A DNA stretch of 64,000 nt from Chlamydiota bacterium (GTDB taxonomy: Bacteria > Auribacterota > JACPWU01), in NCBI GenBank assembly GCA_016196885.1, contig JACPWU010000021.1, positions 3,618 through 67,617 of the forward strand. Reading direction: 5' to 3'. Positions 13,421 to 47,336 of the stretch are shown piece by piece. Within the stretch, counting starts at the first letter, position 1. Every line of letters begins with the position of its first letter. The translations under genes and the position numbers were made by a program. Below the pieces are notes generated by a model. That model was given only the letters and a program-made list of their open reading frames with translations, was not told the DNA's origin and searched no databases.

Positions 13421-13438
13421 AATTGCTTATCTCCTTAA

Positions 13439-13507
13439 AACAGCGGTCAGCATTCAGTGTTCAGCAAAAAAATAAACTCCCTATAAAACTGAACGCTAAA
13501 CGCTGTC
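13439..13507. repeat. Repeat F1 (rpsR-rplI intergenic)
   Basis: aacagcggtcagc...aaaaaaataaactccctataaaactgaacgctaaacgctgtc; terminal acagcg/cgctgt inverted repeat. Confidence 0.5.
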
Positions 13508-13509
13508 TT

Positions 13510-13812
13510 TTATTGATCAATCACATGCGGGATCAGAGCAATATACCTCGCCCTTTTCACGGCCTCTGCCAATTGCCGTTCATGAGAAGAGCAATTCCCT
13601 GTGATTCTTCGAGGAATGATTTTCCCACGCTCCGTCAAATTTTTTCTCAAGCGATTCGTGTCTTTGTAATCAATGGCCTCGACATTATCCAAGCAAAACT
13701 TACACTTCTTCTTGCGAATCACCTTCTCTTCGCGTTCGGCTTTACGATCCTCACGCTTCTTATCATCTCTTCTGCGATCATCTCTGTCTCTAAAAAACAT
13801 GTTTCTTTCCAT
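13510..13812 (-). CDS. rpsR: 30S ribosomal protein S18
   Basis: S18 core [38 protein letters not shown]. Confidence 0.85.
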
Positions 13813-13829
13813 AACTTCCCCTTTATTAT

Positions 13830-13913
13830 GTACCGATGTGCCGATGTGTCAATGCGCCGATGTGCCGATGAAATCAATCATTTTTTGACATCGGTACATT
13901 GGCACATCGGCAC
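13830..13913. repeat. ssb-rpsR intergenic hairpin built from tandem CCGATGTG units and their inverted complements
   Basis: gtaccgatgtgccgatgtgtcaatgcgccgatgtgccgatg-loop-catcggtacattggcacatcggcac. Confidence 0.55.
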
Positions 13914-13920
13914 AATTTAC

Positions 13921-14346
13921 TCAAAAAGGAATATCATCCTCGGACGGATGCTCTTCTTCAGCTTCCACCCCTGCCTCTCTGGCAGGAACCGTTGCCTCTT
14001 GTGGAGAGGATCCCTTGGGACGACCTAAAAATTGAATCCGATTGGCACTGACCTTCAAACGGCTCCTCTTCTCCCCTTCTTTCGTCTCCCAAGAATCCAG
14101 CTGGAGGCGCCCCTCGACTAAAATCGGAGAACCCTTTGTCAAATACTGACCCGCCGTTTCCGCCTGACGGCCCCAGACCACAATATCCACAAAACAAACT
14201 TCTTCTTTCTTTTCTCCTGTCTTTGAAAGGTAAACACGGCTCGTGGCCAAACCCAGATCTGCGACCGCTTGTCCCCCAGACGTGTATCTCACTTCAGGAT
14301 CCCTTGTGAGCCGACCCACCAAAAAAACACGATTTAGATCTGCCAT
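13921..14346 (-). CDS. ssb: Single-stranded DNA-binding protein
   Basis: MADLNRVFLVGRLTRDPEVRYT OB fold with acidic C-terminal tail DDIPF. Confidence 0.85.
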   Translation of the reverse strand: MADLNRVFLVGRLTRDPEVRYTSGGQAVADLGLATSRVYLSKTGEKKEEVCFVDIVVWGRQAETAGQYLTKGSPILVEGRLQLDSWETKEGEKRSRLKVSANRIQFLGRPKGSSPQEATVPAREAGVEAEEEHPSEDDIPF

Positions 14347-14410
14347 ACACACCTCCTTTTCCGAGCCGGCGGCTTTTAATATTTAACAGTTATACGCCCT
14401 CGATGGCCCT

Positions 14411-14515
14411 GGTAGTCGCCCGATTCATCGGGCAATCCCTTGTAGTCACCCGATTCATCGGGCAAGATCCATGCAAGGGGCAAGGGACACGGCCCCATCC
14501 ATGGGGCGACTGCAA
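14411..14515. repeat. Degenerate A-family fragment in the ssb-rpsF intergenic region
   Basis: Two tandem cgcccgattcatcgggcaa hairpin modules plus ccatggggcgactgc. Confidence 0.5.
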
Positions 14516-14534
14516 ATTCTTCAAAAGCGCTTGA

Positions 14535-14816
14535 TTAATTCTTAATCAGGAGATATCTCAACACCTGAGCAGAAGTCCTAAGTTTGCTCTCCATCTTGCG
14601 CACGCCTTCAGAGGAAGATTGAAAGACCAAAAGGACATAAGTCCCTTCCCGAAATCCTTTCACTTTATAAGAAAGCATTTTCTTTCCTTGAATCTCACGA
14701 GTTTGAACACTTCCCCCCGCACTTGCCAATTCAGTCTCGAATCCTTTAACCCATTTCTCTGCCTCAGCATCCTGCAAAGCTGGATCTAAAATCATCATGG
14801 TTTCGTAGTTCTTCAA
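14535..14816 (-). CDS. rpsF: 30S ribosomal protein S6 (TTG start with strong SD AAGGAGG)
   Basis: MKNYETMMILDP aligns to S6 N-termini; canonical rpsF-ssb-rpsR-rplI order. Confidence 0.8.
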   Translation of the reverse strand: MKNYETMMILDPALQDAEAEKWVKGFETELASAGGSVQTREIQGKKMLSYKVKGFREGTYVLLVFQSSSEGVRKMESKLRTSAQVLRYLLIKN

Positions 14817-14834
14817 AACAAACCTCCTTTAAAT

Positions 14835-14920
14835 GAGCGTACAGCGTTGAGCGGACAGCGTACAGAAAAACAAATCCGCTCCCTGTAAACTAAACGCTAA
14901 ACGCTGTCCGCTGAACGCTT
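14835..14920. repeat. Repeat F2 (rpsF 5' leader; encodes last codons of pth)
   Basis: gagcgtacagcgttgagcggacagcgtacag...ctccctgtaaactaaacgctaaacgctgtccgctgaacgctt. Confidence 0.5.
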
Positions 14921-15505
14921 ATTTTTCTCTTTCGACTGAGCGTCACTCAAACATTTCTCAGCGGTATCAAGACCTTCCCCCACAAAGGCCATGACAAATT
15001 TGCAGGCCTTCTGAACCATTTTCTCAGTGCTGTCTAATTCGGACAAAGAAAAGGGACTCAACACATGCTTGGCATAATCTTCCTCTTTGTCCTCGGGAAG
15101 ACCTACCCCCATGCGAAGCCTTGGAATTTCAAGGGTTGCACATGATTCCAAAATCGAAAGAAGACCCTTATGCCCGCCGGAACTCCCTCGGGGCCGAAAA
15201 CGCAAATGGCCCAGCTTCAAAAAAACATCGTCTAGTATAACCAAACTCTCTTGGCCAGACAATTTAAAATATTCCAGAATCTTTCGAAACGCCCGGCCGC
15301 TGTGGTTCATGTAAGTGGCGGGTTTGACCAAAAGAAAATCCTGACCCGCTCTCTTTCCCTCAGCAACCAGGCTTTCCCATCTAGATTCACGACGGAAACG
15401 GATGTCACATGCCCTTGCCAATTCATCCATCACCCAAAATCCGACATTGTGCCGTGTCGCGTGATATTTTTCGTCAGGATTGCCCAGGCCCACCAACATC
15501 CTCAT
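14897..15505 (-). CDS. pth: Peptidyl-tRNA hydrolase
   Basis: MRMLVGLGNPDEKYHATRHNVGF is a typical Pth N-terminus; 3' end is encoded by an F-family repeat. Confidence 0.8.
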   Translation of the reverse strand: MRMLVGLGNPDEKYHATRHNVGFWVMDELARACDIRFRRESRWESLVAEGKRAGQDFLLVKPATYMNHSGRAFRKILEYFKLSGQESLVILDDVFLKLGHLRFRPRGSSGGHKGLLSILESCATLEIPRLRMGVGLPEDKEEDYAKHVLSPFSLSELDSTEKMVQKACKFVMAFVGEGLDTAEKCLSDAQSKEKNKRSADSV

Positions 15506-15635
15506 AATGACCAATCTCCCATTTCCAATGACAAATAAATGACCAACACCCCATTTCCAACGATTCAAGATGTGGGAAATGAGTCATTGGAGAATTGGAA
15601 ATTAATTTGACATTTGTTATTGGTCATTGATCGAT

Positions 15636-16376
15636 TTATTTCTTCTTCTCAGCTTCTTTTCCTTCCCCTTCCTTCTTCTGGGCCGCGGGTTCTTTCTTCT
15701 CACCCTTTTCAAGAGGAGCCGCCGCACCTTCAGCTCCCTCAGCAGGCTCCTTCGCCTTACCGATGACCTCAGGCTCCGTAATCTCGGCTTCCTTCGGTGT
15801 CTCTTCTTCCATCTTCGGCAATGCCACGGAGAAAACGCTGATCTCCTTGGCGGTCAAAATGTCCACACCCTCGGGAGGAACAATATCCCGAACGGAAATC
15901 GAGGCGCCTAAATTTAAATTTGAAACATCCACCACCAGGACTTGTGGAATGTTCATGGGCAAACACTCAATTTCTACTTCGCGCAAGGTACATTCCAAAA
16001 CACCGCCCTCTTGTGTCACCCCCATGGGATCGCCTTTGCCCTCGACACGAACCTTCGTTCGCAATTTCTTTTCCATGGAAACTTCCTGAAAATCCACATG
16101 AATCACACAATCCTTCAAGGGATCCATCTGGACATCGCGAATCAAGGCCATTCTTCCCTTTTTCGTTTCTTGATTTTCCAAATCCAGCCGTACAATCAAA
16201 TTTTCAAAGGCATGCCCCTTCACCACTTTTCCAAAATCCTTGGCGTCCATTTTAATCGCCGTTGCGGGCTTCCCATCCCCATAAATGACCGCGGGAATAA
16301 ACCCCGCGCGGCGCAGCCGCTCAACAGATTTTCCTTTTTCCTGCCTCTCTTCAGCCTTCAACAAAAGATCCGCCAT
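15636..16376 (-). CDS. rplY: 50S ribosomal protein L25 / general stress protein Ctc
   Basis: L25/Ctc beta-barrel domain with a Lys/Glu/Ala-rich C-terminal tail. Confidence 0.8.
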   Translation of the reverse strand: MADLLLKAEERQEKGKSVERLRRAGFIPAVIYGDGKPATAIKMDAKDFGKVVKGHAFENLIVRLDLENQETKKGRMALIRDVQMDPLKDCVIHVDFQEVSMEKKLRTKVRVEGKGDPMGVTQEGGVLECTLREVEIECLPMNIPQVLVVDVSNLNLGASISVRDIVPPEGVDILTAKEISVFSVALPKMEEETPKEAEITEPEVIGKAKEPAEGAEGAAAPLEKGEKKEPAAQKKEGEGKEAEKKK

Positions 16377-18810: not shown

Positions 18811-18881
18811 TGCCCGGTGGTGTAATGGTAACACAGCAGTTTTTGGAGCTGCTTTTCTAGGTTCGAATCCTAGCCGGGCAG
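18811..18881 (+). tRNA. tRNA-Gln (anticodon UUG)
   Basis: Hand-folded cloverleaf: acceptor tgcccgg/ccgggca with U1-A72 typical of tRNA-Gln, D-stem gtgt/acac, anticodon stem gcagt/gctgc with loop ttTTGga, T-arm ctagg-ttcgaat-cctag. Confidence 0.8.
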
Positions 18882-39601: not shown

Positions 39602-39629
39602 TTGACTTTCTTTAGGAGTGTTGTATATT
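39602..39629 (+). promoter_or_regulatory. Sigma-70-type promoter TTGACT-16 bp-TATATT
   Basis: Near-consensus -35/-10 hexamers with 16-bp spacer; predicted TSS about 39636. Confidence 0.55.
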
Positions 39630-39639
39630 GAGGGGTAGA

Positions 39640-39762
39640 AGGTGATATAGATATTCTCTGATAAGGGCAAACTATCCGTAAGGATAGGACGCAAAGCCAT
39701 GGGCCCCTGGGTAGCTAGGGAGGGGGGTCGCCAGGTTGCCGGAGCATAGGCTGAAGAGTCAA
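39640..39762 (+). promoter_or_regulatory. Candidate c-di-GMP-I (GEMM) riboswitch aptamer
   Basis: GGGCAAAC, then 5-bp stem with GUAA (GNRA) tetraloop, then GGACGCAAAGCC, then a second GC-rich hairpin. The junction strings and stem length match the Vibrio cholerae Vc2 aptamer as recalled from memory. Confidence 0.6.
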
Positions 39763-39814
39763 GAAAAGCGTCTATTCTTTTACGGAAGTGAAAGAATAGA
39801 CGCTTTTCTTTTTT
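39763..39814 (+). terminator. Intrinsic terminator / expression platform (18-bp stem gaaaagcgtctattcttt and its complement, loop tacggaagtg, then TTTTTT)
   Basis: Perfect 18-bp stem followed by a T-run, 50 nt upstream of the I9-like gene start. Confidence 0.75.
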
Positions 39815-39864
39815 ACGTGTTTTAACGTCTTGTGTGTGCATCCGCGTTCAGAATAGGGAGAAGA

Positions 39865-40188
39865 ATGAAAAGGGTCCTGATCTGCCTATTGGGGATGGGT
39901 ATGATGATCGAGGCAATGAGTGGAGCGAACGCCCGAGGGGAGGAAGGAAAAAGGGGGAGGGAAATTTTTGTTCGTTTTAAGGCTGAAGTCTCTCAAGACA
40001 GGATACAGGATCTCTTCAAGGAATACCAATTAGAGGTGATTGAGAAATACCCCGCCATTGAGAATCTTTATTTGTGCAAGGTTCCATTGGATTTGAAAAC
40101 GCAAGCGGTCATTCGAAAATTAGAAAAGGAGGGCGATGTTGCCTATGTAGAGGCAAATCAGAAAGTGGAAGCACTCGAAGTCCGATAG
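39865..40188 (+). CDS. Secreted standalone subtilisin-propeptide (peptidase inhibitor I9)-like protein
   Basis: SD GGGAGAAG; signal peptide MKRVLICLLGMGMMIEAMSGA; EIFVRFKAEV...LYLCKVPLDL...VAYVEANQKV aligns with the two propeptides of the downstream protease. Confidence 0.65.
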   Translation: MKRVLICLLGMGMMIEAMSGANARGEEGKRGREIFVRFKAEVSQDRIQDLFKEYQLEVIEKYPAIENLYLCKVPLDLKTQAVIRKLEKEGDVAYVEANQKVEALEVR

Positions 40189-40229
40189 GGTCGAAGTCGT
40201 AGAGTCATTACCAGAGAGGCCGGGGTTCT

Positions 40230-43200
40230 ATGATGAAGTCCAACTGGATGAAGAGGGGGATTGTGTCATGCATCTTGGGAGTGGGGTTGTGGGGAAGCGC
40301 CAGTCTCTTTTCATTTTCTGATGAAGAAAAGAAATACGCCCCCGATGAATTGCTCGTCCGCTATAAACCAGGGGTTTCGAGTGCCCAAATCCGGCAGTTG
40401 AGAAAGGCCATCCATGCCGAACGTCTCGAGAAGTTTTCCATCAATGATGTGCAGCATTATAAACTCGAGGCCGGTCAGTCTCTTCAAGAAGCTCTTTCAG
40501 AGTTAAAGGGTTCCTCCAAAGTTCTTTACGCAGAACCCAATTATGTTGTGGAGTTAAATCAAACCCCCAACGATCCCGACTTTTCCAAACTCTACGGAAT
40601 GAATAACACCGGCCAGACCGGCGGTACAGCTGACGCCGACATTGATGCCCCCGAGGCTTGGAATACACAGACTGGAAATCAGAACCTCGTGATCGCGATT
40701 ATTGATACGGGCGTGGACTACAACCATCCGGATCTGGCAGCAAATATCTGGACCAATCCCAAGGAAATTGCAGGCAACGGCATAGACGATGACGGCAACG
40801 GTTACGTGGACGATATTCATGGTTGGGATTTTTATAACAAGGACGCCGATCCCATGGATGATCATTACCATGGCACTCACGTAGCGGGCACCATTGCAGG
40901 AGTGGGCAATAACGGCATCGGTGTGACAGGCGTGGTCTGGAAAGCCAAGATCATGGCACTTAAATTCTTGAGCTCGGGTGGATCGGGATACACTTCAGGT
41001 GCGATTTCGGCGATCAATTATGCCACTCAAATGGGCGCAAAAATTTCCAATAACAGCTGGGGGGGCGGGGGCTATTCGCAGGCCTTGAAAGATGCCATCA
41101 CGGCCAATCAGAATGCAGGGGCTTTGTTTGTAGCCGCTGCAGGAAATAGCGGCGTCAATGCAGACACTTCTCCCATGTATCCCGCGGCTTATGACGTGGC
41201 CAATATTATTTCTGTGGCTGCGACGGACGCTAAAGATCAATTGGCCTCTTTTTCAAATTATGGAAAAACCAGCGTGGATTTAGGGGCCCCGGGGGTGAGT
41301 ATTTACAGCACTGCTCCCAACAACACGTATAAAACCTTAAGTGGGACTTCCATGGCAACCCCTCATGTCGCGGGAGCGGTCGCCTTAATCTGGTCTCAAT
41401 TTCCGAGCCTGACGAATCTTCAGGTGAAAGATAAATTGCTCGTCTCCACAGATCCGATTTCAGCCCTGTCTGGAAAAACGGTGAGCGGGGGAAGGCTCAA
41501 CATCAATAATTTTATGGAGAATGACACGACGGCCCCGGCCCCTGTCACTAATTTAGCCACTTCCAGCGTTTCCTATTTTACCACCACACTCACGTGGACA
41601 GCGACGGGAGACGATGGTTTCACAGGACAGGCAAGCACCTATGATTTGCGCTATTCTACGAGTGCCATCACAGAGTCTAATTTTTCCTCGGCCCTTCAGG
41701 CGTCCGGGCTCCCCTCACCTAAGACTTCAGGACAGACAGAGACTTTTAAGGTGACAGGACTTTCTTCCAACACGGCTTATTATTTTGCACTCAAGGTGAA
41801 GGACAACGTGGGAAATACTTCTTCCCTTTCGAATGTGATTTCAGCCACCACCTCTCAGGGAACCACTTTCTACCAGGATAATTTTGAGAATGGCCAGGGA
41901 AGTTGGGTCACAGGAGGAACAAACGGCACGGGTGGAGGGACCTTGTGGCATCTTTCAACCCGTAAATCCAACAGTGCGACCCATTCCTTCTATTATGGCA
42001 GTGAGTCCAAGGGTAATTACAACACAGGACAAGCCAATTATGGTTGGATCACTTCTCCCAAAATTTATTTAACCTCGGCTACCAATTCCACTTTGATTTT
42101 TAACCACTATCTGACGACGGAGAATCTGGCCCCCTATGATGAAGGAAGTGTCAGAATTTCAACAGACGGCGGATCCACTTTTACAACGCTCAACAAATTC
42201 TATTCAACCAGCTCAAAATGGCAACAGGTTTCCGTAGATCTTTCGAAATATGATGGGAAAACCGTCTACATTCAATTTTATTTTACGACGCTGGACGCGC
42301 TCTACAACAGTTATGAAGGTTGGTATGTGGACGATGTGCAGGTGATGGCAGATGGGCAAGGTGACACCACACCTCCTGCCGCGATCAGTAATTTGGCAAT
42401 TTCTTCTCTGGGTCAATATTCCCTGACATTGAACTGGACGGCGACAGGAGACGATGGGAATACGGGAACAGCCTCTTTCTACGATTTACGCTACTCCACG
42501 AGCACCATCACAGATTCCAACTTTTCTTCGGCCGTTCAAGTCTCAGGCCTCTCTTCCCCGAAGGCGGCCGGAAATTCCGAATCCTTTGAAGTGAAGAATC
42601 TTTCCAGTGGAGTCACTTATTATTTTGCGATCAAGGCCACGGACGATCTTTCCAATACCTCCGCTATTTCAAACGGGGTGAATGGAAAAACAAAAACGGG
42701 ACCCAAAATCAGCGTGTCTCCCAGCACCCTTGCGAAAGTCAGTTTGGATGTTGGGAAATCAACCACACAGTCCCTGACGATCCAAAACACAGGCGATGAA
42801 AATTTGACATTTGACATCACAGAAATTCCGACAACCACCGCCAGCAGTGCTGAATCTTCCTCCTCTTTGGAAACGGGATCGAGCGCGTCAGCTGCCTATG
42901 CACCTTCCCAAATTTTGGTGAAATTTAAAGAGGGCCTGTCTGAGGCAGCCATTCATGGACTCGGAGATTCAGTGGACGCAAGAACCGTTAAAATTTATTC
43001 CGACATTGATGTCCATTTGATTGAAACCGCTTCAGGATTGGATGCCCAGGAAATGGCCAGAATGTACCTGGCGAGCGGCTTGGTAGAATATGCAGAACCC
43101 AATTATGTTGTTCAAGCCTTAAGTACCTTCCCCAACGATTCTTCTTTCTCTCAACTCTACGGCCTTCACAACACAGGACAAACGGGGGGAACCGCAGATG

Positions 43201-46200
43201 CGGACATTGACGCCCCTGAGGCCTGGGACACTACAAAGGGGGCAAGCTCGGTCGTGGTGGCAGTGATTGACACGGGTGTAGATTACACACATCCTGACTT
43301 ATCAGCCAACATGTGGACAAACTCAGGAGAAATCCCAAACAATGGATTGGACGATGACGGAGATGGTTATGTGGACGACTATCGAGGATGGGATTTTGTG
43401 AACGAAGACAATGATCCTATGGATGACAATAAGCATGGCACACACGTTTCCGGAACCATTGGTGGAGTTGGAAACAACGGTACAGGCGTCGCCGGTGTTT
43501 GTTGGAACGTCAAAATCATGCCTCTTAAATTCTTAAGTGGGAGTGGGTCTGGATACACCTCGGATGCAGTCGAGGCCGTTCTTTACGCCAATAAAAAAGG
43601 TGCGAATGTGATGAGCAACAGCTGGGGCGGCGGCGGATATTCTCAGGCCCTGTATGACGCTATTAAAGCGGCCGAGGTGAAAGGCATTCTCTTCGTAGCC
43701 GCCGCGGGAAATAGCTCGAGCAACAATGATCAAGTGGCCAATTATCCCTCGAATTACAACATCTCGAACGTCATTGCCGTCGCAGCCACAGATGCGAACG
43801 ATGCCCTGGCCTGGTTTTCAAATTATGGAGCGAACACGGTTCATTTGGGCGCCCCGGGGGTCAGCATCTATAGTACCCTGCCGGGAAACACCTATGGCTC
43901 TTTGAGTGGAACTTCCATGGCGACCCCCCATGTAGCTGGGGCTTGTGCCCTCGTGTGGTCCGCGAATCCTTCCTGGAATTATGCGAAAGTGAAAAATCAG
44001 ATCATGGTGGGCACAGATAAAATTTCGAGCATGAGTGGTAAAACAGTTTCAGGCGGTCGGCTGAATGTTTACAAAGCCCTTCAAGCGGCAGAAACCACGC
44101 CTCCCTCAGCCGTCACCGATTTGTCCAGCTCCATGGTTTCTTTTTCCACCCTTAAACTTAAATGGACGGCAACGGGGGATGATGGCAATACCGGAACAGC
44201 CACCTCTTACGAGATTCGTTATTCTACAAGTTCTATCACGAGTTCTAACTTTAGTTCCGCTACGTTGATCAGCAATACCCCCACACCCAAATCTGCTGGA
44301 GGGGCTGAAGAATTCAACGTCACAGGCCTTTCCCAAAAGACAACTTATTACTTTGCCATGAAAGTGACCGATGATGCCAGCAACACCTCTGGCCTTTCGA
44401 ATGTGACCTCTGCCACCACAGACGAAGCGGTGGTAACCTACTTGGATAGCATGGAAACAGGAGCCGGATGGACGGTGACAGGCTTGTGGCATCTTTCCAC
44501 ACGAAAATCTAACAGCCCCACGCATTCTTTCTATTATGGAGACGAGACCAAAGGAAATTACGATACAGGTTCTACCACCCAAGGGACGCTGACATCCTCT
44601 ACCATCGACCTTTCATCGGGGGTCACGCCTCAACTCTCTTTTCAATATTGGAGAAAAGTGGAGTCGGGAGGGATCTATGACAAAACCTATTTAGAAATTT
44701 CAAAAGACAATGGCTCCAATTGGACCCAGCTTTGGTACAAGAACTCCAGCAACACCTCTGAACAAGCCTGGACCAGTTCTGGACCCTTGGATTTAAGCTC
44801 TTACAAAGGCGCTAAAGTCCTTTTGAGATTTACCTTTGATTCTGTGGATGCCTACTTGAATTTTTATGAAGGATTCTACGTGGATGATGTTCAAATCTTG
44901 GATTCAAAAACAGATTTTAACTGGCTCTCCGTGCAACCAGCAACAGGAACCTTAACAGCCAATCAATCTAGCACCGTGACCTTAACCTACACAGCCGTTT
45001 CTAGCGGAACTTACAAAGGAGCCATTCTGATTAAGAGCAATGACCCTGCCAAACCCTCTACCACCCTTTCTCTAGAGTTGACAGCCACTCAAGACACAAC
45101 AGCCCCCTCCGCCATCAGCAATTTAAAAGTTGCCTCCATTGCCAGCAGCAACACCTCTCTAACCCTGACATGGACAGCGCCAGGCGATGACGACAACGTG
45201 GGAACGGCCAGCTCTTATGAAATTCGCTACTCTACAAGCCTCATAACAGATGCTAATTTCAGCGCGGCCACTTTGGCTCCAAATCCACCCACGCCCCAAG
45301 TCGCGGGAAGCACTGAAACCTTCAGCCTGACAGGGCTCGCCCTTTCACAAAATTATTATTATGTTGCGATCAAGACCCAGGACGATGTGGGGCAAGTTTC
45401 TAGCCTCTCCAATGTGGTCAAGACGAGTGACTTGGATTCCGATGGGGACGGGTTGTGCGACCAAGATGAGTACAGCATGGGCACAGATCCTCTCAAGTCA
45501 GATACAGATTCCGATGGGTTCAGCGATGGCCAGGAAAAATCGATTGGGACGGATCCTGTGAAGAGCACAGATTTCCCAGCCACGATTATTCTGACATGCG
45601 ACAATGCCTATGAAATTTACATCAATGGTGTCTTCAAAGGGAATGACTCTAATTGGACAAACAAAGAAACATATTATGCAAAGTTAGGAGACACCATCGC
45701 CATTAAAGGCATAGATCTCGGCGGCATTGCAAGTCTCCTTTGCCAAATCAGCCATGGAAATAAAATCATGCCTTCCAATTTTCTCTGGAAGGCTTCACCT
45801 CAAGCCGCCTCGGGCTGGACAAATCCAAACTTTGACGACTCTTCTTGGCCAGGTGCAGTAGAACATTTTGCATACGGACATGGGCCCTGGGAACAATGGG
45901 TGAACGGATTTGACGCCAGCAACAATTGGATCTGGACGAATCGGCCGGAGGAACATGATACTGTCTATTTTCGGCGGAAGGTGGACTTTTCACAAAATGC
46001 CCTCTTACGGGTTACGGCAGATAATGCCTTTGAAGCTTGGCTGGATGGTCAATACCTGGGATCCAGCAATGTGTGGCATCTGCCCAAATTTTTTATTGGG
46101 ACTGTCAGTGAAGGCAGCCTCATCGCCCTTCACGGGATAGACCTGGGAGGGATAGGAGGACTGCTTGCCTCTCTTACCTACGTGGACTCGAATGGAAAAA

Positions 46201-47336
46201 GGCAAATGGTAGGAACCAACTCCTCATGGAAAATAAGTACCACATCCTCCTCGGGCTGGCAAAACACAGGCTTTGACGAAAACAGCTGGTCCTCAGCGAC
46301 AGAGTGGGCTGCCTTCGGAAGTGGGGTGTGGGGTTCTTTTGACATGGGTGCCCATTTTTCGAATGCAAGCCAAGCCAAGTGGATTTGGGCCTCGGACCCC
46401 TATTCTATCGATGACATCTATGCGAGAAAAACGATCCTCACCCCCAACGCAACACTCAGCATGACGGCGGACAACAAGTTCAAAGTTTATCACAATGGGA
46501 ACCTCGTTGCCTCCAGCTCCCAATGGTGGTCCCCCGCCGTCGTCGGTCTTAATAATCTCCAAAATGGAGACGTCATTGCTGTGAGGGCCGATGATGAAGG
46601 AGGCATTGCAGCGTTTCTTGCAAAGCTGGACTTTAATGGAACTCAAATCTTCTCAAATACAACATGGAAGGCCTCCACAGGACCTTTCTGGGAAGCAGAC
46701 CTCTCTTGGACGTCAAAAAGCTATGACGACTCGAACTGGACAAGCGCCTTCCCAGTCGGAGGCAACGGAATATCCCCGTGGGGATATTTGTCTGACTGTG
46801 GGAGTGCGCAATGGATTTGGGCCTCATCAGACACGGACGGTGTCAACACCTCTTTTTTTAGGTGGACGGTGGGAACCAACAATACAGAAGTAGGTGTAAC
46901 CTCTTTTCTGGTCAGCGCAGACAATGAATACAAGTTCTACAAGAATGGTGTGCTCATCACATCAGGAAGTCGGTGGTATATGCCGGAGAGCTTCACATGT
47001 TTATTATCCCCTGGGGATGTCATTGCGATCGAGGCAAGAGATTATGGTTATAAAGCGGGACTTTTGCTCTACGCCTCCGGGGCTTATAACCTCGTCTCGG
47101 ACAGCTCTTGGAAAATGAGTACCACCGAACAGTCGGGAGGATGGGCGAGTAAAACATTTGACGACTCTGGCTGGGCTTCAGCCAGTGATCACGGGGCCTA
47201 CGGCATTGCACCTTGGGGAAGCAATGCTTCAGGATTCCCAACCAGTTCTTCAGCTCGTTGGATTTGGGGCCCCAACAATCAGACTGGGGCAACAAACATT
47301 GATTCCCACGTCTTCTTCAGAAAGAAAATTGCTTAA
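40230..47336 (+). CDS. 2368-aa secreted multidomain protein with two complete propeptide(I9)-subtilisin(S8) units, Fn3-like and MAM/lectin-like jelly-roll domains, thrombospondin-type-3-like Ca-binding repeats and four C-terminal ~150-aa beta-sandwich repeats
   Basis: Signal peptide; catalytic triads present twice (IDTGVDY(N/T)HPDL, HGTHV(A/S)GTI, GTSMATPHVAG); repeated LxWTAxGDDGxxGxAxxYxxRYSTSxITxxNFSSA modules; DSDGDG motifs; repeats containing WIW and FDDSxW. Confidence 0.8.
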   Translation: MMKSNWMKRGIVSCILGVGLWGSASLFSFSDEEKKYAPDELLVRYKPGVSSAQIRQLRKAIHAERLEKFSINDVQHYKLEAGQSLQEALSELKGSSKVLYAEPNYVVELNQTPNDPDFSKLYGMNNTGQTGGTADADIDAPEAWNTQTGNQNLVIAIIDTGVDYNHPDLAANIWTNPKEIAGNGIDDDGNGYVDDIHGWDFYNKDADPMDDHYHGTHVAGTIAGVGNNGIGVTGVVWKAKIMALKFLSSGGSGYTSGAISAINYATQMGAKISNNSWGGGGYSQALKDAITANQNAGALFVAAAGNSGVNADTSPMYPAAYDVANIISVAATDAKDQLASFSNYGKTSVDLGAPGVSIYSTAPNNTYKTLSGTSMATPHVAGAVALIWSQFPSLTNLQVKDKLLVSTDPISALSGKTVSGGRLNINNFMENDTTAPAPVTNLATSSVSYFTTTLTWTATGDDGFTGQASTYDLRYSTSAITESNFSSALQASGLPSPKTSGQTETFKVTGLSSNTAYYFALKVKDNVGNTSSLSNVISATTSQGTTFYQDNFENGQGSWVTGGTNGTGGGTLWHLSTRKSNSATHSFYYGSESKGNYNTGQANYGWITSPKIYLTSATNSTLIFNHYLTTENLAPYDEGSVRISTDGGSTFTTLNKFYSTSSKWQQVSVDLSKYDGKTVYIQFYFTTLDALYNSYEGWYVDDVQVMADGQGDTTPPAAISNLAISSLGQYSLTLNWTATGDDGNTGTASFYDLRYSTSTITDSNFSSAVQVSGLSSPKAAGNSESFEVKNLSSGVTYYFAIKATDDLSNTSAISNGVNGKTKTGPKISVSPSTLAKVSLDVGKSTTQSLTIQNTGDENLTFDITEIPTTTASSAESSSSLETGSSASAAYAPSQILVKFKEGLSEAAIHGLGDSVDARTVKIYSDIDVHLIETASGLDAQEMARMYLASGLVEYAEPNYVVQALSTFPNDSSFSQLYGLHNTGQTGGTADADIDAPEAWDTTKGASSVVVAVIDTGVDYTHPDLSANMWTNSGEIPNNGLDDDGDGYVDDYRGWDFVNEDNDPMDDNKHGTHVSGTIGGVGNNGTGVAGVCWNVKIMPLKFLSGSGSGYTSDAVEAVLYANKKGANVMSNSWGGGGYSQALYDAIKAAEVKGILFVAAAGNSSSNNDQVANYPSNYNISNVIAVAATDANDALAWFSNYGANTVHLGAPGVSIYSTLPGNTYGSLSGTSMATPHVAGACALVWSANPSWNYAKVKNQIMVGTDKISSMSGKTVSGGRLNVYKALQAAETTPPSAVTDLSSSMVSFSTLKLKWTATGDDGNTGTATSYEIRYSTSSITSSNFSSATLISNTPTPKSAGGAEEFNVTGLSQKTTYYFAMKVTDDASNTSGLSNVTSATTDEAVVTYLDSMETGAGWTVTGLWHLSTRKSNSPTHSFYYGDETKGNYDTGSTTQGTLTSSTIDLSSGVTPQLSFQYWRKVESGGIYDKTYLEISKDNGSNWTQLWYKNSSNTSEQAWTSSGPLDLSSYKGAKVLLRFTFDSVDAYLNFYEGFYVDDVQILDSKTDFNWLSVQPATGTLTANQSSTVTLTYTAVSSGTYKGAILIKSNDPAKPSTTLSLELTATQDTTAPSAISNLKVASIASSNTSLTLTWTAPGDDDNVGTASSYEIRYSTSLITDANFSAATLAPNPPTPQVAGSTETFSLTGLALSQNYYYVAIKTQDDVGQVSSLSNVVKTSDLDSDGDGLCDQDEYSMGTDPLKSDTDSDGFSDGQEKSIGTDPVKSTDFPATIILTCDNAYEIYINGVFKGNDSNWTNKETYYAKLGDTIAIKGIDLGGIASLLCQISHGNKIMPSNFLWKASPQAASGWTNPNFDDSSWPGAVEHFAYGHGPWEQWVNGFDASNNWIWTNRPEEHDTVYFRRKVDFSQNALLRVTADNAFEAWLDGQYLGSSNVWHLPKFFIGTVSEGSLIALHGIDLGGIGGLLASLTYVDSNGKRQMVGTNSSWKISTTSSSGWQNTGFDENSWSSATEWAAFGSGVWGSFDMGAHFSNASQAKWIWASDPYSIDDIYARKTILTPNATLSMTADNKFKVYHNGNLVASSSQWWSPAVVGLNNLQNGDVIAVRADDEGGIAAFLAKLDFNGTQIFSNTTWKASTGPFWEADLSWTSKSYDDSNWTSAFPVGGNGISPWGYLSDCGSAQWIWASSDTDGVNTSFFRWTVGTNNTEVGVTSFLVSADNEYKFYKNGVLITSGSRWYMPESFTCLLSPGDVIAIEARDYGYKAGLLLYASGAYNLVSDSSWKMSTTEQSGGWASKTFDDSGWASASDHGAYGIAPWGSNASGFPTSSSARWIWGPNNQTGATNIDSHVFFRKKIA

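Follow-up and report, generated by a model that had tools for sequence, protein, structure and literature searches.

This locus raises the question why a subtilase in which both catalytic units are preceded by a prodomain of their own should be encoded directly beside a third, free-standing prodomain. The locus lies on the forward strand of a 64,000-nucleotide (nt) stretch of contig JACPWU010000021.1 from a Chlamydiota bacterium, which was analysed as a whole and is called the window in the following; coordinates refer to it unless another locus is named. An aptamer of the cyclic di-GMP-I (c-di-GMP-I) riboswitch class is followed there by an intrinsic terminator, by a gene for a small secreted-type protein with a predicted subtilase-prodomain fold, and by a gene for a giant subtilase with two catalytic units, or heads. 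Together these four parts, the last of which is a lectin-bearing subtilase of two heads, constitute a rare conserved module. On balance, we infer that the small protein, secreted and expressed along with the protease, probably inhibits one or both heads in trans or keeps them latent; this reading is based on the propeptide fold and C-terminal tail of the small protein, on its helix-capping residues and on the strict linkage of the two genes.

A start codon, a ribosome-binding site, a signal-like N-terminus and a stop codon all belong to the small gene itself, and its product is therefore independent and not part of a larger precursor. A free-standing propeptide-like gene next to a protease had already been pointed out in an earlier note on this DNA, in which the product was likened to both internal propeptides of the large protein. 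Both statements were borne out. The small protein showed 32% identity over 69 amino acids (aa) to the first prodomain in cis and 30% over 71 aa to the second, both alignments lying about 10 standard deviations above shuffled controls, while at the DNA level no similarity between the small gene and the internal prodomains was detected. The profile PF22148 (Fervidolysin_NPro-like) was matched with 34.1 bits at a cut-off of 21 (E 3.5e-8). It takes the place of PF05922 (Inhibitor_I9), which the earlier note had named for checking its reading of the protein as I9 propeptide-like and which gave no match in any of nine family members at E<=10, with the HMMER filters discarding very weak matches.

In the AlphaFold2 model of the small protein, residues 31-100 reached a predicted local distance difference test (pLDDT) value of >93, while the pLDDT of the tail was low. 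The modelled elements are E33-38, H44-53, E57-62, E68-72, H79-87 and E92-97 (E, strand; H, helix). The leading Foldseek matches of this model were prosegments of subtilisin BPN'/E and prodomains of furin and PC1, headed by 1SPB_P (target-normalised TM-score 0.71), 1SCJ_B, 3CNQ_P and 9FID; the ORF2 chaperone 3WQB_B (rank 39) and POIA1 (1V5I_B) appeared lower in the list. Glu96 and Asn98 are invariant throughout the alignment of the stand-alone family with both cis prodomains (A1), and they align with Glu69 and Asp71 of the BPN' propeptide, which are helix-capping residues (PMC6993865). Since Leu104 is located eight residues past the capping Glu, in the same way as the P1 residue Tyr77 of the BPN' propeptide is located past Glu69, the segment V101-E-A-L104 can be proposed as the P4-P1 segment. 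Altogether, the match to the hidden Markov model (HMM), the predicted fold, the conserved capping Glu-x-Asn and the propeptide-like tail support the view that the small gene is a true paralogue of the prodomains that stands by itself. A further feature of the protein is a single cysteine, Cys71 (40075..40077, within the motif ENL[FY]LC), which is invariant in 9/9 stand-alone members, while the cis prodomains comprise Tyr or Ile at this position.

The distribution of such proteins emerged only through an exhaustive HMMER search with the mature small protein, which covered 1.84 billion representatives. A word-indexed protein search found the query alone, its profile version found six proteins, and a genome scan with the single small protein as query found no loci. 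The exhaustive search resulted in only 19 matches. Nearly all were either short proteins of 94-128 aa that stand alone, which occur in several lineages, or tandems made of prodomains only, 169-223 aa in length; just one was a long protease. A tight subfamily of about ten sequences has ENL[FY]LC and a C-terminal E-x-N-Q-x-V-x-A-L in common, with a hydrophobic N-terminus in most of them. PF22148 was above the cut-off in 9/9 members scanned, and C71, Y94, E96, N98, Q99 and V101 are invariant among nine sequences of 30-48% identity. The NQxVxAL tail is kept in the family, with V-x-A-L in most members, and two members terminate precisely at AL; the tails of the cis prodomains differ among orthologues (V-Q-A-L, V-Q-T-M and V-S-V-N). 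A family HMM assigned 123-133 bits to the members and <=37 bits to cis prodomains, a separation which, for a distinct family of about ten members, argues for a real gene and not debris. The small protein belongs to this rare and distinct family of stand-alone proteins, which is newly recognised here. Two of four distant stand-alone or tandem cases examined lie directly upstream of a gene combining a prodomain and an S8 unit (Pro-S8). Both are prodomain-only tandems of two domains, 207 and 181 aa in length, and come from unrelated metagenome-assembled genomes (MAGs; L009, 1413..3738, and L090, 1165..3419). The distant relatives P0013 (tandem) and P0017 (single-domain) are not located beside a protease gene.

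Wherever flanking DNA was available, the order was riboswitch, terminator, small gene and orthologous large Pro-S8 gene. This was observed in the window, L004, L005, L006/L007/L010 and L008, and the gene pair is conserved in at least five lineages. The distance from the small to the large gene amounts to 19-59 nt in the window, L004, L005, L006 and L008, and on the contigs encoding P0004 a gene of at least 1217 aa begins 35 nt past the small gene. The full two-headed protein was found in three lineages, and just the 5' end of the subtilase gene on two short contigs. L004 is a sibling MAG with a large protein of 66% identity, and the large protein of L006 is a two-headed orthologue of 2599 aa. 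Related S8 units (42-71% identity) were compared at 80 genome loci, many of them bearing the label Planctomycetota, Verrucomicrobiota or Fibrobacterota; of these, only the L006 contig has the small gene or the riboswitch. The double Pro-S8 relatives L012 (94..6366) and L015 (9242..19825) comprise neither a stand-alone prodomain gene nor a riboswitch in the available sequence. A further double Pro-S8 fusion protease is P0012.

The large protein begins with a signal peptide, followed by a first unit of the order prodomain-S8-Fn3-MAM-Fn3-Ig, a Ser-rich linker, a second unit of the order prodomain-S8-Fn3-MAM-Ig-Fn3, two thrombospondin type 3 (TSP3) repeats and four C-terminal repeats (Fn3, fibronectin type III; Ig, immunoglobulin-like). 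In the window and in L006, a PF22148 prodomain precedes both S8 units, and L004 shows conserved prodomain segments with a Y-A-E-P-N/D capping motif. The small-protein family HMM (A2) also matched prodomain 2, at about aa 885-965. Peptidase_S8 (PF00082) gave 414 bits in two stretches. The two complete catalytic triads which the earlier note had read from the sequence were confirmed, the second unit included: Asp, His and Ser are present and in order in both units, each together with an NSWGG oxyanion motif, and the triad motifs are likewise complete in the L004 and L006 orthologues. The Fn3, the two MAM-like and the TSP3 modules named there were recovered as well, as four fn3 stretches by Pfam, two PF20773 matches and two TSP3_bac repeats. 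Fn3 domain 4 (aa 1634-1715), which gave a Pur_ac_phosph_N match of 25.1 bits under the cut-off, is taken as the fourth fn3 stretch and holds an fn3-type motif at aa 1648. MAM domain 1 matched the InhA structure 4YU5 weakly (E 0.0023), and the Ig-like region at aa 819-882 gave weak matches to ASH, fn3_5 and choice_anch_D.

The four C-terminal repeats with their WIW and FDDSxW motifs are real, while their description as novel did not hold. No Pfam model was found for them, but they are homologous to the lectin structures 6T0Q, 6T1D and 6KBJ (E ~3e-23) and, in the rhamnosidase 3W5M, to residues 88-296 (E 9e-7), which we take to be its rhamnose-binding CBM67 module. Positions 136-295 of the NCBIfam model rhamnosid_Stmyc matched them in four stretches. 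Accordingly, the repeats are predicted to be carbohydrate-binding (CBM67/lectin-like) modules and not a new domain. In the L006 orthologue, different repeats of about 190 aa and a He_PIG Ig domain (~13435..16131, aa ~1700-2599) stand in place of the four repeats; the C-terminal targeting modules are thus exchanged while the double Pro-S8 core stays.

The NCBI gene calls for the MAGs take in only the 3' portion of this giant open reading frame (ORF), with 1427 aa and 1570 aa. The call of 1427 aa begins within prodomain 2, and that of 1570 aa begins further upstream, in Fn3 domain 2. The first Pro-S8 unit is missing from both calls in its entirety, despite an ORF without interruption (40230..43052 of the window, which equals 10366..13188 of L001, and 8333..10729 of L004). 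The public annotation, from which an entire protease unit had been omitted, is thereby corrected.

The tandem duplication of the S8 units suggested earlier is real, but a recent origin, which the note had raised as a point to be checked, could not be upheld. The two protease units show 56.5% identity over 772 aligned residues. In the three orthologous genomes, the first and second catalytic domains within one genome are 63-70% identical, whereas first compared to first and second compared to second between genomes are 75-83% identical. Since the same head is thus more similar between genomes than the two heads are within one, the duplication is old and predates the split of the three lineages, both heads having been maintained. 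A recent duplication was ruled out by the unit identity together with this orthologue comparison. An assembly artefact was likewise ruled out: an independent Logan assembly of another run contains the identical gene pair, and the architecture recurs at two orthologous loci. The same uninterrupted ORF was found in L001, L002 and L004.

Upstream of both genes, the Rfam model RF03167 matched the aptamer at 39657-39744 with 67.4 bits at a cut-off of 59. The same model gave 64.6 bits in L005 and 61.3 bits in L006, and L004 matched RF01051 with 47.8 bits at a cut-off of 35. A home-built covariance model (R1) detected the riboswitch in 5/5 loci with the stand-alone gene and in 0/79 other related S8 loci. 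In the five-locus alignment, 97.9% of the cells were paired and three pairs showed compensatory changes, compared to 24-51% paired in slid controls; with only five sequences, the statistics of this comparison are weak. The best model is c-di-GMP-I-GGC in the window, L005 and L006, but canonical c-di-GMP-I in L004 (7695..7881), where the aptamer comprises an insertion of about 100 nt within one hairpin. At the two sites which distinguish the printed GGC consensus, the window RNA has an A instead of a G at the first (CGCGAA) and a G at the second (UGCC), while the L004 RNA has an A at both. The A of the window RNA is presumably the canonical c-di-GMP-I base. Since the window RNA thus carries the canonical base at one of the two distinguishing sites, both the assignment to the GGC variant and any assignment of a ligand are regarded as tentative.

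The terminator is likely to be the expression platform of the riboswitch. Its stem CCTATTCTT-CGGA...AAGAATAGG is kept in 5/5 loci (39771..39800 in the window, ~7893-7935 in L004, ~1588-1615 in L005, 7952-7980 in L006 and ~127-160 in L008), although conservation does not extend to the spacer and the proteins encoded downstream share only 37-58% identity. A search by eye for an anti-terminator or alternative pairing in the conserved loci yielded none that was convincing or conserved. A motif scan of the ORFs in the window found no GGDEF, EAL or HD-GYP signature, and the presumed ligand thus has no local source. In the literature searched, no report pairing c-di-GMP riboswitches with Chlamydiae was found, and we know of no established cyclic-di-GMP signalling in bacteria labelled Chlamydiae. 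The coordinates of all parts of the locus are given in Table 1.

Table 1. Features of the riboswitch-prodomain-subtilase locus (window coordinates; residue numbers refer to the respective protein).
Feature	Coordinates	Strand	Details
Sigma-70-like promoter candidate	39602..39629	+	TTGACT, 16-nt spacer, TATATT; 10/12 consensus positions, consensus match only
c-di-GMP-I-class aptamer (clan CL00126)	39652..39750	+	Best Rfam model RF03167, c-di-GMP-I-GGC
Intrinsic terminator, hairpin of ~20-23 bp and T-run	39762..39816	+	Stem CTATTCTT...AAGAATAG conserved in 5 loci
Small secreted-type ORF	39865..40188	+	107 aa counted from ATG; GGGAG ribosome-binding site
Signal-peptide-like N-terminus of small protein, aa 1 to ~23	39865..39933	+	MKRVLICLLGMGMMIEAMSGANA; judged by hydrophobicity
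Predicted stand-alone subtilase-prodomain fold, aa 31-100, with invariant E96-x-N98	39955..40164	+	PF22148
C-terminal tail V101-E-A-L104-E-V-R	40165..40185	+	V-x-A-L is the proposed P4-P1 segment
Two-headed subtilase ORF, 2368 aa, stop codon included	40230..47336	+	Starts 41 nt past the small ORF
Cis prodomain 1, aa 30-111	40317..40562	+	PF22148, best stretch 30-104
S8 catalytic unit 1, D159/H214/S374	40563..41534	+	PF00082 and motif positions
Fn3 domain 1	41547..41849	+	fn3 model; WTATGDDG motif at aa 456
InhA-like MAM domain 1	41856..42353	+	PF20773, 30.7 bits, cut-off 26.9, domain scanned alone
Fn3 domain 2, then Ig-like (choice-of-anchor-D/ASH-like) domain	42381..42875	+	fn3 at aa 718-806
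Internal cis prodomain 2, aa ~891-964, end V-Q-A-L	42900..43121	+	Second PF22148 stretch
S8 catalytic unit 2, D1014/H1069/S1229	43122..44108	+	PF00082 and motif positions
Fn3 domain 3	44118..44420	+	fn3 model and motif
InhA-like MAM domain 2	44427..44903	+	PF20773, 29.9 bits, cut-off 26.9, domain scanned alone
Ig-like (HYDIN/VesB-like) domain, then Fn3 domain 4	44913..45374	+	PF22544 at aa 1562-1616
Two bacterial TSP3 (Ca-binding type) repeats	45429..45563	+	PF18884, 43 bits, 2 stretches
Four CBM67/lectin-like repeats, ~145 aa each	45579..47333	+	WIW and FDDSxW motifs; lectin and rhamnosidase structure matches

The protease operon is located on the + strand and has a GC content of ~0.49, slightly above the ~0.45 of its surroundings, where the genes are mostly of the housekeeping type and on the - strand. 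A tRNA gene at 18811..18881 on the + strand (Rfam, 63.8 bits) is unrelated to the protease locus.

If the small protein is a trans inhibitor, the course of events could be as follows. Promoter, aptamer, terminator, small prodomain gene and two-headed subtilase gene would form a single transcription unit, in which the riboswitch would set the read-through of the terminator into both genes. The small protein would leave the cell via Sec and dock on one or both catalytic domains like a cleaved propeptide, with its beta-sheet placed on two surface helices of the protease and Glu96 and Asn98 acting as caps. V-E-A-L would occupy the S4-S1 subsites, with Leu104 at P1. The result would be a temporary tight-binding inhibition, serving latency or safety, until the small protein is degraded or left behind. 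Since the riboswitch lies upstream of both genes, it is expected to act on their transcription together, and because it gates the pair jointly it would be unable to free an enzyme that is already inhibited. The proposal of the earlier note that the protease is kept latent until c-di-GMP levels change, which implies the release of a premade inhibited protease, is therefore not retained.

Several points weigh against such an inhibitor. Orthologues of the small protein share 37-47% identity, compared to 56-64% for the cis prodomains and 75-83% for the catalytic domains; this faster divergence could reflect relaxed constraint. The two-headed relatives L012, L015 and P0012 have no such gene nearby (genomic context covered for L012 and L015), and the small gene is thus not required by the two-headed design. 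Due to the predicted co-transcription, the riboswitch alone cannot separate inhibitor from protease. Finally, the modelled fold would be equally compatible with an external foldase of the ASP/ORF2 type.

This foldase is the most serious of the alternatives, although we consider it unlikely: the small protein would fold one head, e.g. the internal unit 2, in trans and inhibit it only in passing, as described for ORF2 and the protease ASP of Aeromonas sobria (PDB 3WQB). The two systems have in common a bacterial stand-alone propeptide-like protein of the propeptide fold, encoded beside an S8 protease, and 3WQB_B is among the structural matches. ORF2 is a temporary inhibitor that touches the catalytic centre of ASP with its C-terminal residue (PMC5638518), and a similar placement is proposed for the tail of the small protein. 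The ORF2 family model PF18492 (ORF_2_N) was matched weakly by one of the nine family members (E 0.032, under the cut-off) and by prodomain 2 of L006 (E 0.12), neither of which is convincing. However, ASP is without a propeptide (PMC5638518), whereas conserved cis prodomains are present at both catalytic units in three orthologues, and for this reason the inhibitor precedent fits better than the foldase precedent. Moreover, close two-headed relatives lack the small gene, and orf2 genes are located downstream of the protease gene and not upstream as observed here.

Clearly improbable, in our view, is an inhibitor directed against foreign subtilases, which would shield the cell or the giant protein from proteases of a host or of competitors. 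The secreted appearance and the generic, subtilisin-friendly V-x-A-L tail would suit this function, and the fast evolution could reflect an arms race. It is difficult to reconcile with the strict adjacency to one orthologous protease gene and the common riboswitch at every flanked locus, and the tail resembles the V-Q-A-L tail of the window's own prodomain 2. A non-proteolytic role, in which the ferredoxin-like fold serves e.g. to anchor the giant protein or as its adaptor, seems highly improbable. It could account for the unexplained invariant cysteine that is missing from the cis prodomains, but the HMM match is prodomain-specific, the leading structural matches are all subtilase prodomains, and both the capping motif and the propeptide-like tail are conserved. 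A decaying remnant, i.e. the prodomain of a third Pro-S8 unit whose catalytic part was lost, would be plausible from the duplication history and the similarly deep ~30% identity to both internal prodomains, but is hardly credible and largely excluded by conservation, given the intact ORF with its signal-peptide-like start, the six positions kept in nine sequences, the clear separation by the family HMM and the confident AlphaFold2 model.

Altogether, the locus represents a variation, in bacteria, on a regulatory idea that is already known and not a new kind of system. In streptococci, SpeB reportedly has an adjacent gene for Spi, an inhibitor that is a propeptide paralogue; SpeB is said to be a family C10 cysteine protease of unrelated fold, and Spi to be cytoplasmic. 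PopD of Myxococcus xanthus reportedly carries an I9 domain. Like the protease of the window, the PopD partner PopC is a bacterial subtilase checked by a small complex-forming protein; unlike in the present case, PopC and PopD have no signal peptides and are cytoplasmic, PopD acts by blocking secretion and is eliminated through regulated proteolysis, and no riboswitch is involved (PMC6434023). The closest resemblance in principle is found in eukaryotes, where SUB1-ProM is an inhibitor of Plasmodium SUB1 that stands alone and resembles a subtilisin propeptide, and where POIA1 (Pleurotus), PBI2 (yeast), SPI-1 (Arabidopsis) and TgMIC5 are stand-alone propeptide mimics of the MEROPS I9 type (PMC6993865). 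SUB1-ProM, POIA1, PBI2 and SPI-1 inhibit subtilases that have their own propeptide (PMC6993865). SUB1-ProM is, like the small protein, a separate small secreted product of propeptide fold with a conserved capping Glu-x-Asn/Asp motif, encoded beside subtilase genes that keep their own propeptides. Unlike here, its partner is single-headed, neither an operon nor a riboswitch is present, and inhibition was shown, whereas it is proposed for the window protein; a sequence relationship between the two is undetectable beyond the fold. POIA1, PBI2, SPI-1 and TgMIC5 share the stand-alone propeptide fold with the window protein but are eukaryotic and without operon linkage, and the window protein matches PF22148 and not PF05922. 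With regard to the RNA, the locus resembles c-di-GMP-I (GEMM-I) riboswitches in front of secreted adhesins and proteases, in which an aptamer of the same clan together with a terminator controls large secreted surface-active proteins; it differs from these in that its best-scoring model is the GGC variant.

Regulatory stand-alone propeptide mimics have been characterised almost solely in eukaryotes, and the bacterial ORF2 serves a protease without a propeptide. The window offers a compact bacterial system in which one riboswitch controls one paralogous prodomain and one protease, each of its two heads bearing a cis prodomain, and it permits a direct test of why prodomains in cis would have to be supplemented by a third in trans. 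In addition, a riboswitch of the c-di-GMP class is tied here to a defined protease and a putative inhibitor as output, in poorly known environmental bacteria. A more far-reaching version, which we regard as decidedly doubtful, is that the small protein is a dedicated latency subunit of the two-headed subtilase and that the GGC-type riboswitch perhaps senses a ligand other than c-di-GMP. If this were true, the small protein would be the first I9-type inhibitor from bacteria to act in trans on a subtilase that retains its cis propeptides, and a physiological output would be defined for the GGC riboswitch variant, in bacteria that bear the label Chlamydiae.

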